Part shown: positions 10,359 to 24,752 of the stretch, piece after piece
Layout: every line of letters starts with the position of its first letter
Numbering within the stretch: the stretch's first letter is position 1
Source: a virus
Lineage: Duplodnaviria > Caudoviricetes
Length of the DNA stretch: 27,445 nucleotides
IMG/VR virus record: IMGVR_UViG_3300011336_000415
Span: 1-27,445 of that record
Strand: one strand, 5' to 3'
Translations under genes and position numbers: made by a program
The notes under the pieces: model-generated
Database searches by the model: none
Seen by the model: only the letters and a program-made list of their open reading frames with translations
What the model was told of the DNA's origin: nothing

Positions 10359-11093
10359 TTATTTATTATCTTGATAACTTGTTTCTAATTTACCCTTTAC
10401 ATCTTTTTCTCTACGAGCATAAAGAGCTGGGATAGTTACCTGTTCCCACTTCATTACTCTATCTGCAAAGGTCTTAGCATTTGACATAGTTCTCATACTT
10501 GCATATTTATCGCAAGCGTAATCAGAGATATATTCGTGATGAGTTGGAGAGAAACCAGCTTGTTTTGAAGTATCTCCATAGACATAGTAATTCATTGGTC
10601 TTTGATACTTAACTTTAATACCTCCTGTAACACTAAAATTAGGTGTAGGCAGTAGTATAAGTGAGTTAGCTGTACGATTAAATGATGTAGGTGTACCGCT
10701 TGTGCTAAATACCTGTGTCATTGATTGGTTATTCTGTGGATATTCTGTTTCATCTACCTCTTTAAGTGGTATCCATACACCATTAGATAGTTGTATTTCT
10801 ATTGAAAGTATCTGCAAGAAGTTAGCTGTAAAAGGATAATCTGCTTGCCCTGATGTTAAATTAGTCGTAGCAATAGAATAATCTGTATATGTTGAATCAT
10901 CTATCTGCCATTTGCCATCAATATTCATTACAATATTTGTATATGAATTAAGAGCTTCATTGAAAAGCCCTGTAAATGCTTGTAATCTGTCTGTATCTCC
11001 ACTTATTTGACCATATCCACCATCACCAAACAAATTAAATTCACATTTTTGTATAAGTCCTGTATTTGTAAGTGTATCGCTAAATTGTGTCAT
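10359..11093 (-). CDS. Head-tail adaptor (P22 gp4 / T7 gp11-like)
   Basis: NLTSGQADYPF...GTP...LILLPTP...KVKY...HHEYISDYA pattern; located after the capsid genes. Confidence 0.7.
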   Translation of the reverse strand: MTQFSDTLTNTGLIQKCEFNLFGDGGYGQISGDTDRLQAFTGLFNEALNSYTNIVMNIDGKWQIDDSTYTDYSIATTNLTSGQADYPFTANFLQILSIEIQLSNGVWIPLKEVDETEYPQNNQSMTQVFSTSGTPTSFNRTANSLILLPTPNFSVTGGIKVKYQRPMNYYVYGDTSKQAGFSPTHHEYISDYACDKYASMRTMSNAKTFADRVMKWEQVTIPALYARREKDVKGKLETSYQDNK

Positions 11094-11115
11094 ATTATTT
11101 TAATTAAGTTGCCTA

Positions 11116-11142
11116 TATGACCCACCATATAGATGAGCCATA
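11116..11142 (-). other. Intergenic RNA hairpin
   Basis: AUGGCUCAUC-UAUAU-GGUGGGUCAU. The G-U pairs work only on the minus (mRNA) strand. Confidence 0.5.
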
Positions 11143-11149
11143 AGGTAAT

Positions 11150-11410
11150 TTAACTTGCTGTTGTTACTGCTACCCATCCTCCTGTACCTGTTGAGTTTAT
11201 ATACATTCGTGTAGCTGTTGTTGAGCCATCTGAACGTAGATAAACAGAACCTTTAGGAGCTGTAAAAGTAGGAGCACCTGAACCAGCAGAGATTACAAAT
11301 CCTGATGAACCTAAACTTAGAAGTGAAGCACCTCCAGCAATAACATCTTGTTCTGTTGCTGAGCTTACTACACCTGGAAATTTTGGGTTTACGCCATTTG
11401 CTACTGCCAT
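11150..11410 (-). CDS. Small head fibre / decoration-type protein
   Basis: GSGAPTFTAPKGSVYLRSDG...MYIN...GW is a short fibre-like motif; lies downstream of the capsid gene. Confidence 0.6.
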   Translation of the reverse strand: MAVANGVNPKFPGVVSSATEQDVIAGGASLLSLGSSGFVISAGSGAPTFTAPKGSVYLRSDGSTTATRMYINSTGTGGWVAVTTAS

Positions 11411-11583: not shown

Positions 11584-11662
11584 CCTTACGGGGGAAGTGC
11601 TAGGTAGAATTGGTGGGCGATTTCTCGCTTTGGCTACCCAGCACACCCCCAATAAGGGGGTT
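11584..11662 (-). ncRNA. Structured RNA element downstream of the major capsid gene
   Basis: A roughly 22-bp stem (CCUUAUUGGGGGUGUGCUGGGUAG / CUACCUAGCACUUCCCCCGUAAGG) encloses a GCGA-GAAA-UCGC tetraloop hairpin and an unpaired CCACCAAUU. Confidence 0.6.
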
Positions 11663-11666
11663 TAAT

Positions 11667-12521
11667 TTATGCTGTCAAAGTAACATCTACGATAAGGTCT
11701 GCAACTGGAGCCCAAAGTTTGAATCCTACATATCCGTAGAACACAACTTCTTTACCAGTCTTACCACTAACACCTTTCTCTTCCATCTGTACATTTCGTA
11801 GAGATGCATACATAGCCTGCTTCTTAACTCCGAATACTCGGTGGTTTGCGTTTGTAACTGTCTTTGTTCCGATAGTAGCATCTGCGAATGTACCAGTTCG
11901 TACAACATAGATGTCAATACCAGCCTGACTTGATACAAGACCATTCTTCATTGCAAGGTCTGAATATGAGAATCCAGAAGCCATCTGTGAACCTAGAACT
12001 CCAGGGACATCAGTGTTTTCAATTATAAGGAATAGACCCTTATATACTTCTGCATAACCCATAACCTTTGATGCAAGGTTTGAAAGGATTGTATTTGTGT
12101 TTGTAGTGTTAAAACCTCCTGATGGTGTTGAGTACGCACCTGTCGCATCTTCACATAGGTTATTTACTACAAAGTAGTCAATCTTCTCTTTGATTCCATA
12201 AGTAGCTGTATCAACAACAGAGTTGAATAGGTCTACTCGTGCAAATCGTGACTCGTAATCTTTGATATGTCCTGCCCACTTAACTTCATTATCTACTGTG
12301 AGAGTATCATCAGTAGTTGTTATATCACTTACATCGTAAGTACCCGTAAGACCAGTAATTGCGACAGTGAAGTTAGTAATGTAAGGATTTTCAATAGTAA
12401 GTGCATTACCATTGTCTACTTCACAAACATCTTCCGCTACAAGTGCCTTTCGGAGCTGTGCGTTAAGTCGTGTTGAAAAGTATTTCTTTCTATAAGTATA
12501 AGTACTTAATGTATTAGCCAT
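11667..12521 (-). CDS. Major capsid protein (HK97 fold, P22-coat-like)
   Basis: 284 aa, follows the scaffold gene. DDTLTVDNE E-loop region and C-terminal GKEVVFYGYVGFKLW. Confidence 0.8.
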   Translation of the reverse strand: MANTLSTYTYRKKYFSTRLNAQLRKALVAEDVCEVDNGNALTIENPYITNFTVAITGLTGTYDVSDITTTDDTLTVDNEVKWAGHIKDYESRFARVDLFNSVVDTATYGIKEKIDYFVVNNLCEDATGAYSTPSGGFNTTNTNTILSNLASKVMGYAEVYKGLFLIIENTDVPGVLGSQMASGFSYSDLAMKNGLVSSQAGIDIYVVRTGTFADATIGTKTVTNANHRVFGVKKQAMYASLRNVQMEEKGVSGKTGKEVVFYGYVGFKLWAPVADLIVDVTLTA

Positions 12522-12556
12522 TTTTAGGATTAAATAAAATTTTAATCCACCAATTC

Positions 12557-13117
12557 TTATCTTTTAGCCAGTTGAGCTTGAATTAGTCTCTCTAGGTCTG
12601 CATCAGTTTCAGGCATAATACCCTTACTTGCTCGCTCTACTAAGATTTCATCAGATACTCTTGAAGAGCCACGTCGAGTTGAAGCTACGTTAGTAGCGTT
12701 AGCTGTTAGTCGTTCTTCTTTTTTCTCTTGTAGAATAGCTTGAACTGATTTTGATTTTAGAGCTTCTGCTACTGTTACACCCTTTAGTTTTGCCATTTCG
12801 ACAACCTGTGGAATGTCATCAGTATCAATATCGGCTTTCATAATCGCAATAGTGTCTATTGTACTTAGATTATCAAGCTTAGTTTCCGTCTTCTTTTCAG
12901 AAGTGATACCAAGTTTCTTTTCTGTCTGTTCTAGCTGTCTTTTAAGACGAGAACGCTTTTGTTCAAGAGTTTCAGTCGGTCTTTCAACTGGCTTATCCTC
13001 CTGTGTTTCTTCTTCCTCAACCTTATCTTCTGCTAGTTCATCTAGTTCTACCTCTATCTCTTCATTGTTTTCTTCTGTGCCAATGATAACCTCCTCTTCG
13101 TTATTTTCATTTTCCAT
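12557..13117 (-). CDS. Capsid scaffolding protein
   Basis: Highly acidic N-terminus and coiled coil; immediately upstream of the capsid gene. Confidence 0.7.
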   Translation of the reverse strand: MENENNEEEVIIGTEENNEEIEVELDELAEDKVEEEETQEDKPVERPTETLEQKRSRLKRQLEQTEKKLGITSEKKTETKLDNLSTIDTIAIMKADIDTDDIPQVVEMAKLKGVTVAEALKSKSVQAILQEKKEERLTANATNVASTRRGSSRVSDEILVERASKGIMPETDADLERLIQAQLAKR

Positions 13118-13171
13118 AAATGATAAGTTTTTTGTTAGTCACTTTTAAGGTGTGATAACCATATGTTTATA

Positions 13172-13200
13172 ATTATACTACTGTTTTAAAAATCAAGCAA
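13172..13200 (-). promoter_or_regulatory. Sigma70-type promoter for scaffold/capsid
   Basis: TTGCTT, 17 nt, TATAAT. Confidence 0.6.
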
Positions 13201-13207
13201 ATATTTT

Positions 13208-13759
13208 TTACTTTGCTGAATTTTTCTTATCCAATTCTTTCAAAGTAGTTTCTACATCTTCATCTTTCTTACCAGCCAAAACAAATATCTGGTTAATTTG
13301 CATTTCTATATGCCCGATAATTGTATTTCTTGTAAGTAAGTCTATGAAGTTTTGCTCTACACCCTTTTCTTTAGAGAATAGGAGAGAATCTATTTTAATA
13401 GTTTCTACTTTTTCATCTCTAAGCTCTTTTAGCATTGCATCAAGGTATTTTATTAGAATATCTCTTGACTCAATATGATAAATAGCTGTTTCAGGTGTCA
13501 TACCATCAAGTTTAATAGTCATCCATAAGTCTATTACTTGGTGGAAAGGAGCATCACCATCAATATTTGGAAGTACACACTTCTCTAATACCTGTATTGT
13601 TTCTCTTGTTTTAACCTGTGATAGTAAAGTTTTCTCTGTATCTGACATAGGTAACTGCAAAAAGAACTTACGCAATATTTTTAGTAGTGCCTTATTCTCT
13701 GCAAATACAGATTTCATTATACCAATCTCTGCATCTGTAAATCGTCTTTCTTTATCCAT
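13208..13759 (-). CDS. Hypothetical protein in the head module
   Basis: 183-aa helical ORF between portal and scaffold. Confidence 0.65.
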   Translation of the reverse strand: MDKERRFTDAEIGIMKSVFAENKALLKILRKFFLQLPMSDTEKTLLSQVKTRETIQVLEKCVLPNIDGDAPFHQVIDLWMTIKLDGMTPETAIYHIESRDILIKYLDAMLKELRDEKVETIKIDSLLFSKEKGVEQNFIDLLTRNTIIGHIEMQINQIFVLAGKKDEDVETTLKELDKKNSAK

Positions 13760-13760
13760 A

Positions 13761-13928
13761 TTATTTTTTAGCCTTACCTGCTTTTGATAATGAGATAGCT
13801 ATAATCTGCTTCATTGGTCTTTTCTTACCATTAGCACCCATAGCTTTCCCTTTCTTTTTGTTATCTTTTATCAGTTCACGAATGTTAGCTGAGATAACTT
13901 TCTTACTCGTACCTTTTTTAAGTGGCAT
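13761..13928 (-). CDS. Small basic protein (55 aa) of the MPLKKG...NIRE...KQ..AI family
   Basis: Not in the track: [55 protein letters not shown]. Resembles small basic proteins often found next to phage portals. Confidence 0.75.
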
Positions 13929-13960
13929 TAGTTTATAGTTAATTGATAATCCCCACCAAT

Positions 13961-15760
13961 TTATGTTGTCATCTGTGGGATTTGTTGAGAAGATTTCATA
14001 GATTGATTAGATTGAGTTTCGTTAGATAATTCTACTTCTGATACCACACCTGTATTGGCGATAATTTTGTTAAACAACATCTTCATATTAGGGTCTTGTA
14101 GTACTGACGGATTGATTGCTAGTGTTTGTAGTACTGTTGTAAGTGTAGTTAATATAGCTTCCTTATCTCTTTGTTCATTAGTTGTTTCAACTTCTACTTC
14201 CCATTCAAAATCCTTAAACAAGTCACGCCAAGTCTGTGTAGACACATCACTAGGAGAAATAAATCGTTGCTTACCAAATTGAGCTAGTTGTTTCTGTAAA
14301 TCCTGTGTTTCTGACTGTATCATTAAATCCTGCTGATATGGGGATACGATTGAGCCTGCGAGTACCTGCTCTTTAATCTTCTTATTAGTTCGTCTAATAG
14401 CTTCATTAGGGATGTACATTGAATCAATCTTCTTAATGTAGTGGTCATCAAGAGTTGCTGATATTTCGTCTGTTGTATTTAACGATTTCTTAACAAAAGG
14501 TAATACAAACTCTCGCATCATAAGTTCAATATAAAACCCTTTATTTTCTGTCATCAACTCAAACAATGAGTGAGCTTCTTGATTAAGTACAGCTACCTGT
14601 CTATAAGCTGTTCCTGACGGCATTGTGTTTCCTGATATAGCATCTGGTGTTGAAGTAATACTATTAGCATTATTTATCCACATTGTAGAGAAATTCTGTA
14701 GTGAAGTTATATCGTGAGAACCATTGTTTATCTGTGTAAGAGGTGCGTTAGGTGCGTGAGTTAGAATATCTCCGTTCTCAATAGATTTTAATACATTTCT
14801 ACCAACAAAATTAACATCTGCTGTCTGGAAGATTAGCTTTGAAGCCAAATCCAACTGGTCTTTCATAGCCTTAGCCGAATGATTAACCATCCACTGTGAG
14901 TCAAATAGATATTCAACAGCACCTATACCTTGTATTCTACCCTCTTCTTTTAGTAGATGAGTAATTAGATAAGGACTTCGTTTTTCTCTACCTTTCACAA
15001 GGGTAAATGGAATATCTTTACCATCTGTTCCTTTTTGAATAGATACAACGTGCATCTGTTGAACGTAAGTATCTTCATCCGCTGGGTTTTCTGTAATGTA
15101 TGATAAAGGTAATACTCCGTGTACTTCATACAACTCAATATACTCTGCAATATTATCTACCTGTGAGCCGTCTAATAGTTTTCTTGACTGTATCAAATCG
15201 CAAATCTCTTCTACCTTTACTTGGTCATAAGCTGGATTATTCTTTAGCTGTGCTTCTGTAAAATATAATCTTTCAATAACAGGGTTGTTATCAAAGTCTA
15301 TCTGGTCGCAAATAATTCTATTCCAAGGCACTACTTCTCTATGAAGTTCTCCGCCTTTCTCTACAAATTTAGTTACTGCCGAGCCATATCCTGCAAGTAC
15401 CATACCCCAGTCATTTAAAAATTGTCCGAAATTACTTTTTCGCATCCACTCTTGAACTTTAATATTAGCTAGAAAGGCTATTATTACCTCTGATTTCTTT
15501 GTAGACTTTATAGTAATATTCTTTCGGTCAATATCAGTAGCTCTCATCCAAATATTACGAGCGGAAGTGACTATATTGAAAAAAGGCTTATCTCTTCCAA
15601 AGGCATCTTTATCACCTGAAATATGCTTAGAATATAAATAAGCCGTTATCTTTTCTGTATTCTCATATTGATTAAATTCTACATACTTACCGAGCTTTGT
15701 AGAGCCGATAGTATAATCCTGCTCCATCTGTGTAATTAACTTATAAAGATTATCTTGCAT
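13961..15760 (-). CDS. Portal protein (P22-like)
   Basis: 599 aa directly after the large terminase; [12 protein letters not shown]...[11 protein letters not shown]...TAY motifs. Confidence 0.8.
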
Positions 15761-15801
15761 TAAATGAATATTCCACCAATTTTTATGGATAATTTAATAT
15801 A

Positions 15802-15830
15802 ATTATATCAGTGATTAAACAAATCAACAA
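15802..15830 (-). promoter_or_regulatory. Sigma70-type promoter for the portal
   Basis: TTGTTG, 17 nt, TATAAT with a TGn extension. Shares TTGATTT...TATAATTATA with the scaffold promoter. Confidence 0.6.
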
Positions 15831-15851
15831 GTCAATACCTTTATTCACAGA

Positions 15852-22845: not shown

Positions 22846-23634
22846 ATGATTATGGAATTGAACACTGTGATACAAGGAGATTGTTTAGAAGTGATGAAGA
22901 ATATACCAGATAAAAGTATTGACATGATACTTTGTGATTTGCCTTATGGAACTACTGCATGCAAATGGGACAGTATCCTGCCACAAGATAAGTTGTGGCA
23001 GGAATATAGAAGAATCATAAATGATGGCGGGTCAATAGTTCTATTTTCTTCTGGACAATTTACACCCTATTTAATGGCAAGTAACTTAGATATGTTTAAG
23101 TATAAGTATGTTTGGGTAAAGCAAAATACTACTAACTTTGTTCACGCCAAAAATAGACCAATGACTGAACACGAAGATATACTTGTTTTTAGTAAGGCAC
23201 CAATGGGGCATCTTTCACAACTAGGACAAAAAAGAATGATTTATAATCCACAAGGACTTACAGAAATAAATAAAAATATAAAACTTGGAAATGGTAGGTT
23301 TGGAACCGTTGCAGGTAAAAGACCTAGCCATAAAGAAGTGTTTAAAAGAACTCATACTGGTTATCCAACTGATATTTTATGGCAATTTAATGAAGTGGCT
23401 ACTAATAAAAAATCACACACAAGTGAAAAACCAATAGAATTACTTGAACATCTCATCAAGACCTACACCAACGAAAATGATATTGTATTAGACAACTGTG
23501 CAGGTTCAGGAACTACCGCTATTGCTTGTATAAATACTAAAAGGAATTATTTCCTTATTGAAAAAGAACCAGAGTATGTTGAGATTATAAAAAAGAGGTT
23601 AGACAGTAGTAATAATCTTTTTTCCACAACATAA
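22846..23634 (+). CDS. Orphan N6-adenine/N4-cytosine DNA methyltransferase, beta class
   Basis: Motif IV (DMILCDLPY) is N-terminal to motifs X-I (HTSEKP...VLDNCAGSGTT); no adjacent endonuclease. Confidence 0.92.
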   Translation: MIMELNTVIQGDCLEVMKNIPDKSIDMILCDLPYGTTACKWDSILPQDKLWQEYRRIINDGGSIVLFSSGQFTPYLMASNLDMFKYKYVWVKQNTTNFVHAKNRPMTEHEDILVFSKAPMGHLSQLGQKRMIYNPQGLTEINKNIKLGNGRFGTVAGKRPSHKEVFKRTHTGYPTDILWQFNEVATNKKSHTSEKPIELLEHLIKTYTNENDIVLDNCAGSGTTAIACINTKRNYFLIEKEPEYVEIIKKRLDSSNNLFSTT

Positions 23635-23674: not shown

Positions 23675-23720
23675 TTATATGTTCACCCATAACTATGGAA
23701 CTCGGCTAATTATAAATAGT

Positions 23721-24038
23721 ATGAAAAAATGCAAAAATTGTAAAAAGGATTTTAACGAAAAACAAAAGACTGAAAAGTATTGTTCTACTGAATGTTCCTA
23801 TAAGGCAATAGATGATAAGAGATATGCTAGAAATAAAACGTGTCAGCTAGTTAAATGTATTGCGTGTAATGGAAAAGGTGTAGTGAAGCGTAGAGTATAT
23901 TCTATCTTATCAGATGAACAAAAGAAAAATATACTTTTACTTTACAGAAAAGGGTATGGAATTAGGGAAATACAAAGAGAAGTAGGAGCTAAACACCCAT
24001 ACACAGTAACTTATTATATAAAAACTTGTAACCAATAA
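23721..24038 (+). CDS. Zinc-finger plus C-terminal HTH protein
   Basis: CKNC..YCSTEC, CIACNGKG, and HTH LSDEQKKNILLLYRKGYGIREIQREVG. ATG 23721 is preferred to 23679. Confidence 0.7.
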   Translation: MKKCKNCKKDFNEKQKTEKYCSTECSYKAIDDKRYARNKTCQLVKCIACNGKGVVKRRVYSILSDEQKKNILLLYRKGYGIREIQREVGAKHPYTVTYYIKTCNQ

Positions 24039-24320: not shown

Positions 24321-24752
24321 ATGCTAACCAAACAACAAGTAAAAAACGCTCTACAAAATGAACACGAAAGAGAGCAAGCACTTAAAAGACAGCTTAAATG
24401 GTATTTTTGGAATTTACAACAATATAGAAAAGGCGGGATAATATGTGACTGCGATAGAATAGTTCCAGTAAATAAAGTATGCGAATGTGGCAAAATGCCA
24501 TTACATCTCATAAAAAATATGGTATGCAAACAATGTAGTAAAAACTTCGTATCATACAGAGAAAAGGTCTTTTGTAGTCCAAAGTGTTTAGAAAAATGGG
24601 GTAAGGAAAAAAGTACAAATGTATGTGCACAATGTAATCATTACTTTTTAAGACCAAATAGTGCTAGTAGATATCTAAATAGATTTTGTACTCAAAAGTG
24701 TTATAGAAAATATAGAAGTTTGAACGATTCAATGTATAAAGGAGATAATTAA
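24321..24752 (+). CDS. Multi-zinc-ribbon protein
   Basis: CDC..CECG, CKQC..FCSPKC, CAQC..FCTQKC. Confidence 0.7.
   Translation: MLTKQQVKNALQNEHEREQALKRQLKWYFWNLQQYRKGGIICDCDRIVPVNKVCECGKMPLHLIKNMVCKQCSKNFVSYREKVFCSPKCLEKWGKEKSTNVCAQCNHYFLRPNSASRYLNRFCTQKCYRKYRSLNDSMYKGDN

Follow-up and report, generated by a model that had tools for sequence, protein, structure and literature searches.

A hairpin behind the capsid gene and its pairing with head-gene leaders: a candidate activating riboregulator in a family of tailed phages

Behind the major capsid gene of a tailed phage lies a long hairpin, H1, whose loop exposes a short word complementary to sites in the leaders of several head genes, and in related phages the loop and the leaders change together. 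The DNA analysed is the 27,445-nucleotide (nt) stretch of virus record IMGVR_UViG_3300011336_000415 (IMG/VR; Caudoviricetes), referred to here as the window, which is part of a tailed-phage genome with the terminase, likely portal, likely scaffold, major capsid and adaptor genes on the minus strand. Three sets of DNA contigs confirm the sequence, two of them being near-identical to it and possibly its source. What the sequences themselves show is the hairpin, the sites that match its loop, the way loop and sites change together between phages, and the overlap of these sites with hairpins in the leaders; we have little doubt that the loop–leader pairing is real. Its purpose calls for more caution. 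The explanation that we favour, with confidence somewhat better than even, is that head-gene translation would be activated by strand displacement through a probably processed guide RNA, for which the best label is an activating riboregulator, the small RNA probably being cut out.

Joint change of the loop and the leaders

The word AATTGGTGG is present in the window in exactly four copies, three on the mRNA (minus) strand and one on the plus strand. The three sense copies lie where the preliminary description of this DNA had placed them, before the likely portal gene (15773..15781, 12 nt before the ATG), before a small basic gene (13953-13961, 24 nt) and before the capsid gene (12547-12555, 25 nt). 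The inverted copy (11608-11616, an exact match on the plus strand) falls within H1, where the minus strand carries the guide word CCACCAAUU(CU) (11606..11616) as the unpaired 3' side of the loop, and the match had correctly been given as extending to 11 nt at the capsid site and to 10 nt at the site at 13952. Shuffling produced on average 0.14 copies of AATTGGTGG and none of 100 shuffles reached four; copies with one mismatch number 8 vs 5.7 expected, which is no enrichment. Since the word was picked after the fact and its one-mismatch copies are not enriched, we took the relatives as the real test. Record L001 (35,955 bases, with a capsid gene 100% identical to that of the window) contains the same four sites and no others.

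Capsid homology searches, in a family of more than 2,200 capsid homologues, yielded 172 loci, of which 128 are distinct by capsid sequence and 101 have enough flank; 94 were left after merging identical loop–leader pairs. Capsid identity of the relatives is 48-86%. The guide was a 22-nt segment chosen solely by the fold, except that in L001 and L002, where the loop contains a side hairpin, it was extended by hand. It was scored against the 50 nt preceding each gene, a score of at least 20 being counted as pairing, with the reverse-complement leader and a shuffled guide as controls. The loci share ancestry, so p-values overstate independence. By this measure the loop pairs with its own capsid leader in 81/99 loci (reverse-complement control 0, shuffled control 3), with its own portal leader in 21/75 (0 and 2) and with the leader of the conserved gene after the portal in 18/86 (3 and 4). 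Adaptor leaders are matched in 7/62 loci (0 and 5), a count not above the shuffled control, and matches were found in 2/91 scaffold leaders and 0/65 terminase leaders. Counted over whole loci, the density of matches per kb is 2.30 for sense leaders and 0.035 for antisense ones, with 0.146 and 0.092 for coding DNA, and the leader matches are confined to the sense orientation (130 vs 2 antisense). An equal frequency in coding DNA, which the preliminary description had named as an argument against a regulatory circuit, is thus not what is observed.

The word itself drifts freely between phages. The nearest relative, L002 (86%), has AGTTGGTGG in all three leaders and CCACCAACT in the loop, and the words encountered elsewhere include CCACCGA (the commonest), CCACCAA, CCAGCGU, CCGUCGU, CCAUUGU, CCUAUUU, CCUGCCG and CCAUCAG; capsid sites show at least 17 distinct 7-mers, and 30 distinct 9-mers were counted in total. 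The median energy of cognate duplexes is -17.3 kcal/mol vs -10.5 kcal/mol for non-cognate ones (all energies here and below are predictions); the cognate combination beats the swapped one in 2759/2852 pairs of loci with different words, and 71/94 loops beat at least 95% of the different-word loops on their own leader. On a FastTree capsid tree, read by eye without a formal count, the word changes fall on many separate branches. This joint change of the loop and several leaders, many times over in about 94 distinct loci, indicates that the pairing is under strong selection. Independent variation of loop and leader, the other argument raised beforehand against a circuit, was looked for and the two covary instead, which lends strong support to the suggested loop-to-leader RNA–RNA circuit on the head genes.

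In an independent test, viral contigs were searched by the RNA pattern alone. In 14/41 matches a capsid gene precedes the RNA; 9 of these 14 are new, one has 39% identity, and 13 have a capsid-leader site, 12 at the expected place and one (L324) beyond an insertion. A looser pattern scan (120 loci) returned mostly chance matches, tblastn against cultured phages found no related capsid, and searches to reach distant capsid subfamilies were unsuccessful. In L346, a weak capsid match (39% over 82 aa), the open reading frame (ORF) is followed by a hairpin which does not match the H1 model. Near position 5000 of L315, L316, L329 and L341 a different, GC-rich long hairpin shows the same loop word with no capsid gene upstream; those of L315 and L316 do not match the H1 model either.

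The preliminary description had offered a protein-binding DNA site as the alternative, so that the word would be bound by a phage protein at its four copies. Joint change of all copies is likewise expected of an operator, and the mismatches within the loop–leader duplex are compatible with one: G-U stood against A-C at 8 vs 4 in a first count and at 10 vs 13 in a later count (p 0.25; internal positions p 0.09), G-U not being significantly favoured. However, at least 17 different 7-nt specificities would be required of such a protein within a set of phages whose capsids are more than 48% identical. Only one copy is inverted, and it occupies the tip of a hairpin whose fold is better in the mRNA strand than in the antisense strand in 86/94 loci, a comparison tempered by the derivation of the structure on the mRNA strand and by the better folding of G-rich strands in general. 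The leader matches are sense-only, and the arms of the capsid leader hairpins, described below, change together with the word. Chiefly because the words are so numerous, because the inverted copy is placed at the hairpin tip and because leader matches are sense-only, we consider a DNA site extremely unlikely.

The guide hairpin, its release and a second hairpin

In the window H1 spans 11584..11657 on the minus strand, after the capsid stop codon, with ~22 bp leading to an interior loop and a predicted energy of -40.1 kcal/mol (z -5.27, or -5.3 against -3.0 for the opposite strand). An extent of 11584-11662 had been given for the stem; it is corrected here, as 11645-11661 forms an alternative 5' hairpin. 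The complement of the 9-mer was rightly seen to be unpaired, although it is found in a 5x9 interior loop and not in a multiloop; CCACCAAUU is fully unpaired and makes up the entire 3' side of this loop. The side hairpin GCGA-GAAA-UCGC (11617..11628, minus strand) in the 5' part of the loop is present in the window as noted before, but its GAAA tetraloop is not conserved: L002 has the same side stem with UUAU, and in most relatives there is no side hairpin and the loop is a plain apical one.

Past the capsid stop, 99/101 loci have a hairpin of 16 or more pairs. Double changes are seen at 17/18 consensus pairs of H1 (33 hand-picked sequences), and G-U pairs make up 370/2657 of its pairs in the 94 loci. 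The 7-nt loop core has a median opening cost of 1.9 kcal/mol vs 13.4 kcal/mol for the stem arm. H1 begins 8-18 nt past the capsid stop and its stem varies within a narrow range of 24-32 pairs (10th-90th percentile, including weak loop-closing pairs), with 12-16 in the outer and 11-16 in the inner part. The stem sequence is poorly kept (mean column identity 46%) and contains no constant docking motif. Searches of Rfam 15 gave no family match at the gathering score in the window or in 10 related loci, and otherwise only chance miRNA matches at 18 bits.

RNase III substrates contain about two helical turns of double-stranded RNA, a length that the H1 stem shares. The outer half of the stem has an alternative in hairpin P0 (CCCCC-UUAUU-GGGGG; 11645..11661, minus strand, -12.4 kcal/mol), which under a strict rule is found in 72/94 relatives, with a median of -11.3 kcal/mol and a start 3-9 nt past the stop. 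Formation of P0 excludes the outer half of H1, the full stem being ~13 kcal/mol more stable, and the H1 stem divides about evenly at the end of P0. We propose that the stem may be cut near its middle by RNase III and that the cut would free a hairpin RNA of ~50-60 nt acting in trans, after which P0 would refold as a 3' cap. P0 is in this way predicted to serve as the 3'-end protector of the capsid mRNA. A role for P0 as a general terminator was rejected, as at least five T within the 8 nt after P0 are found in only 5/88 loci in the sense and 12/88 in the antisense direction. The window is one of the 12 antisense cases, and here P0 (11645-11661) reads as an intrinsic terminator on the plus strand.

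The guide has targets on both sides of H1, up to 4 kb away, and in three loci it has itself been displaced. In L084, L097 and L324 the distance between capsid stop and guide is 600-680 nt owing to an inserted gene, yet pairing survives. Two hairpins are present in L084 and L324, one at the capsid stop that has P0 but no guide, and a guide copy that is without P0's C-run; L097 shows no such split. These natural insertions support the release of the guide by a cut at the end of P0. They also bear on the possibility of a closed loop in cis, whereby the hairpin would stay in the message, pair with the capsid leader, hold the start open and return terminating ribosomes to it. The capsid leader is by far the most constant target, and a rigid stem of narrow length range placed just behind the capsid stop would suit such an arrangement. 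Yet pairing persists with the guide far away behind another stop codon, and further targets lie 4 kb upstream and downstream of the hairpin. Since pairing is kept beyond an inserted gene, strict ribosome recycling at the capsid stop is disfavoured, while a longer cis loop would still be compatible; we regard the closed loop as quite improbable overall.

The gene inserted in L084 matches Pfam HNH and AP2, and free-standing HNH or HNH-like genes are inserted after the capsid stop in L084, L097, L324 and L136. HNH-like insertions occur on either side of the capsid gene, two of them duplicating the hairpin scaffold and two taking over the guide site; for the inserted gene of L173 a Pfam search gave no HNH match.

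A second long hairpin, H2 (11102..11155, minus strand, z -3.8), precedes the adaptor gene in the window, and a long hairpin is found before 51/60 adaptor genes, two of these being H1 itself. In L024, L038, L077, L080, L132, L141 and L158 the apical loop of H2 shows the full sense word, and it is on this exact placement in seven loci, not on the adaptor-leader counts, that we base the involvement of H2. The H1 covariance model scores H2 weakly in L024, L084 and L132, and the two hairpins may share an origin. An H2 loop with the sense word could possibly be a kissing partner or a sponge for the guide. A partial copy of the motif before the adaptor gene (11121-11127) had been pointed out in the preliminary description; it does sit where these relatives show the full site, but in the window it is degenerate and mostly buried, with an unfavourable predicted binding of +5.0 kcal/mol.

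Leader hairpins and the sign of the effect

Words resembling a Shine-Dalgarno (SD) sequence precede few genes in these phages (1/26 in the window, 40/833 in the relatives). Openness of the start site should matter where SD sites are rarely used, and the predicted cost of opening positions -15..+3 was calculated around each start. Among the gene classes examined, capsid genes have the most structured leaders (median -7.4 kcal/mol), whose opening costs 7.7 kcal/mol vs 3.2 kcal/mol in 816 other leaders. With the guide site blocked the cost falls to 3.0 kcal/mol, and with an upstream control block it is 6.9 kcal/mol. In portal leaders blocking of the site lowers the cost from 5.8 to 1.6 kcal/mol (control block 3.8 kcal/mol).

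The anatomy of the capsid leaders is consistent with these values. The 3' end of the site coincides with the 5' arm of a leader hairpin, with an overlap of at least 2 nt in 76/77 relatives with a site; this hairpin ends 0-9 nt from the AUG in 66/77, and what remains of it after guide binding is unstable in 58/77. The window follows this plan: the capsid target site AGAAUUGGUGG (12547..12557, minus strand) starts at the scaffold stop codon, and its last GG is the 5' GG of the leader hairpin GGAUUAAA/UUUAAUCC (12527..12548, minus strand), which ends 5 nt before the AUG. At the portal the geometry is different, the site supplying both loop and 5' arm of a small hairpin adjoining the AUG. In the window this site (15773..15781, minus strand) is located within a weak hairpin and has a predicted net binding of -6.0 kcal/mol, and blocking it reduces the predicted opening cost of the portal start region from 5.1 to 0.7 kcal/mol. 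Net binding is predicted to be favourable at 72/77 capsid and 22/22 portal-type sites. Capsid sites end 20-41 nt from the AUG, no target site is further than 41 nt from its AUG, and portal-type duplexes end at least 7 nt from it, mostly at a spacing of 7-14 nt.

It is mainly because two geometries give one predicted outcome that we favour activation. In the proposed mechanism the exposed loop word of 7-12 nt would pair with the site in the capsid leader, and often with one in the portal leader too, unfolding the hairpin that hides the start codon and so turning head-protein translation on. As predicted by folding, the capsid leader is closed and the free 5' part of the site could serve as a toehold, from which the guide CC(C) would displace the leader's own CC(C) and let the AU-rich remainder melt. 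The purpose may be to hold back head-protein synthesis until full-length late transcription has run past the capsid gene, as a threshold switch in a phage that has no SD sequences and hence would rely on open start regions.

Two additional features of capsid leaders were noticed. Tandem double guide sites are present in L010, L052, L064, L074, L076, L124, L136, L168 and L330, the first directly behind the scaffold stop, and in L011, L012, L019 and L108 an extra conserved GGUC-GCAA-GACC hairpin stands between the site and the AUG. Scaffold leaders are structured in 67% of 86 loci and are without a guide site; the scaffold leader of the window (13120-13150, minus strand) likewise folds as a hairpin.

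Several observations weigh against the favoured explanation. The energies include no topological penalty for loop pairing, and the capsid site of the window itself nets only -2.4 kcal/mol. No strong site is present in 54/75 portal leaders, and 18/99 capsid leaders fall below the threshold, many since the site is shorter, further upstream or tandem. L064 and L065 have their capsid site at 10-12 nt from the AUG and no evident hairpin, and in L173 and L313 a gene between scaffold and capsid took over the site, leaving the capsid's new leader without one. Post-portal and adaptor sites belong to start regions that are open from the outset (1.4 and 2.7 kcal/mol), and blocking has no effect. One clade (L011, L012, L019 and L108) has post-portal sites whose end is 0-3 nt from the AUG, an arrangement resembling repression. 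The capsid site starts -3 to +9 nt from the scaffold stop in 53/72 loci, and at such proximity terminating ribosomes could open the hairpin without the guide. Finally, cleavage by RNase III is proposed from stem size and general substrate rules.

Some of these points would suit the same pairing with the opposite sign, in which a late-accumulating hairpin RNA represses head genes by covering ribosome loading or standby sites, or a mixed arrangement with the capsid gene activated and the post-portal gene repressed. All sites are close to the AUG and some touch it in the clade just mentioned, there is no inhibitory hairpin in post-portal leaders or in L064 and L065, and a feedback brake of this kind is known from icaR of Staphylococcus aureus, where the 3'-untranslated region (UTR) pairs with the 5'-UTR, covers the SD sequence, represses and creates an RNase III substrate (PMC3868564). 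Against this, binding at the capsid and portal leaders is predicted to open the start region and not to close it, portal-type duplexes stop short of the AUG, and it would be hard to see why the most needed protein should have a closed hairpin if nothing opened it. We therefore consider repression, wholly or in part, unlikely, if the least so among the rivals to activation.

The duplexes could also act in RNA processing or stability, blocking a 5'-3' exonuclease or masking or creating endonuclease sites, as in Bacillus subtilis hbs, where pairing controls RNase Y cutting (PMC5737220). The position of capsid sites next to the scaffold stop, the post-portal sites at the portal stop with their open leaders, and the full site in the H2 loop in seven loci, which has no start-site effect, would agree with such a function. 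In the window the site of the small basic gene (13952..13961, minus strand, predicted net -2.4 kcal/mol) overlaps the portal stop, and the start region of this gene is not occluded in the fold. Nevertheless, overlap of the sites with start-hiding hairpins in two geometries is left unexplained, and stability as the main function seems to us distinctly improbable; a mixed or stability role is possible.

Recruitment of ribosomes without SD pairing was also put forward in the preliminary description. The hairpin would then be a substitute anti-SD, binding the ribosome or a protein and positioning it through the leader word. The scarcity of SD sites in these phages and the SD-like spacing of portal-type sites would be in keeping with this, but the other targets are spaced anywhere from 0 to 41 nt from the AUG, including unstructured gaps of 17-34 nt, the words are not SD-like, and the poorly conserved stem offers no constant docking motif. 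SD mimicry through a GGUG core was rejected, as the core itself changes between phages. The leader anatomy points instead to the unfolding of inhibitory leader hairpins, and recruitment is very unlikely.

Phage late genes are generally seen as transcriptionally controlled. A broader and more doubtful proposal, which we put forward tentatively, is that RNA-licensed translation represents an undescribed layer of late-gene control, with locked head messages unlocked by a released hairpin carrying a drifting password. If so, it would be a self-amplifying switch private to each phage, which co-infecting relatives or satellites with another word could neither trigger nor exploit; H2 with the sense word before the adaptor gene would be a sponge or timer, and at least 17 orthogonal riboregulator pairs would be available in this family as a natural library. 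Activation by the guide would in itself show how a phage without SD sites times its most expensive proteins and would provide orthogonal RNA switches of natural origin, which could be assayed at low cost on synthetic leaders.

Known RNAs, hosts and neighbouring genes

The closest parallels are phage RNAs acting on transcripts of their own phage. IsrK, a small RNA of Salmonella prophage Gifsy-1, activates in trans, by binding, a transcript that is otherwise translationally inactive (PMC4825925). As predicted for H1, a phage RNA of the same transcription unit thus activates a transcript in trans; also by folding, the target leader hides the start region at the capsid and portal genes (not at post-portal or adaptor genes), and at capsid leaders the guide pairs with the arm that hides the start, freeing the start region. 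In contrast, IsrK arises from the 5' end by termination, controls an antiterminator and has one target (PMC4825925), whereas the H1 guide is placed downstream of the capsid gene and addresses several head-gene targets with one short loop word, which varies between phages. No sequence or Rfam link between the two was found.

P4 CI and P1/P7 C4 are short structured RNAs, cut from their own transcript, that pair with complementary sites on both sides in the same phage (PMC4825925, PMC5499578). H1 similarly has complementary sites upstream (portal, post-portal and capsid) and, in a subset of loci, downstream (H2) in its own phage, with pairing indicated by covariation. CI and C4, however, are RNase P products and immunity repressors, CI working by transcription termination (PMC4825925, PMC5499578), while H1, a single long hairpin, belongs to the late head operon, is a predicted translation activator and has no Rfam match; it is found behind the major capsid gene with head-gene targets and not in an immunity or antirepressor region that it represses. 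H1 works like IsrK and P4 CI and belongs to neither family. The bacterial icaR and hbs systems share with H1 a C-rich element behind the coding sequence which pairs with the leader of the same gene, but they have one target each, whereas the H1 system has no SD sequence, a freely drifting word, several targets, and binding predicted to open the start. In particular, the icaR type of pairing with an SD motif is not seen, since the words, among them ACGACGG, ACAAUGG and CUGAUGG, do not resemble an SD sequence.

The predicted strand displacement has counterparts elsewhere. In toehold switches and engineered riboregulators, which are synthetic, a trigger strand invades a start-hiding hairpin, and in the rep pseudoknot of IncI/IncB plasmids a loop does so, in IncI after an upstream reading frame terminates. 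The IncI partner loop is just upstream in the same leader, while the H1 guide is ~900 nt downstream or in trans.

Literature searches, with two motif-survey supplements only partly searchable, found no described phage RNA that switches on translation of its own capsid and portal genes. Passages of a review (PMC12197685) make no mention of capsid, and no match was found in the searched supplement files, alignment archives excepted, of the Fremin 2023 motif survey (PMC10690425). The H1 hairpin alone could be among the unnamed candidates of that survey or of Weinberg 2017 (PMC5737381).

Homologues in genome bins (11 loci) fall in bins named Saccharibacteria (4/11), Peribacteria, Blastocatellia, Bacteroidales and Chitinophagales, in two archaeal bins and in that of one other bacterium; most are phage-sized contigs which may be misbinned. 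The only relative that looks integrated is L169 (G001:C22, ~19,000-57,000), on a 401-kb contig in a Blastocatellia bin. It has an integrase-like gene, the GC content steps from 0.45 to 0.61 at ~57 kb, and the phage part has few SD sites, unlike the flank.

The genes discussed above all lie on the minus strand of the window. The major capsid protein gene (11667..12521, 284 aa) matches PHROG 267, major head protein, at E 1e-7. Upstream of it, the acidic 186-aa gene (12557..13117) had no family match in profile searches and is likely the scaffold, judging from its position and composition; it has no guide site. The small basic gene (13761..13928, 55 aa) matches PHROG 2423 (E 6e-11). The 599-aa gene between terminase and scaffold (13961..15760) matches PHROG 332, connector/head-tail adaptor (E 2e-7), and is likely the portal on account of its size and position. 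The adaptor gene (10359..11093, 244 aa) just exceeds the cut-off of Pfam SU10_adaptor (27.5 bits, cut-off 27). By eye, TATAAT boxes with weak -35 regions can be seen on the minus strand before the portal (15790-15835) and the scaffold (13155-13200) genes; a promoter scan did not call them. They suggest separate transcripts for the portal and for scaffold-capsid. On the plus strand we noted two HNH-like genes of PHROG 1271 (23679-24038 and 24321-24752) and a DNA-methyltransferase-like ORF, recognised by eye, at 22846-23634.

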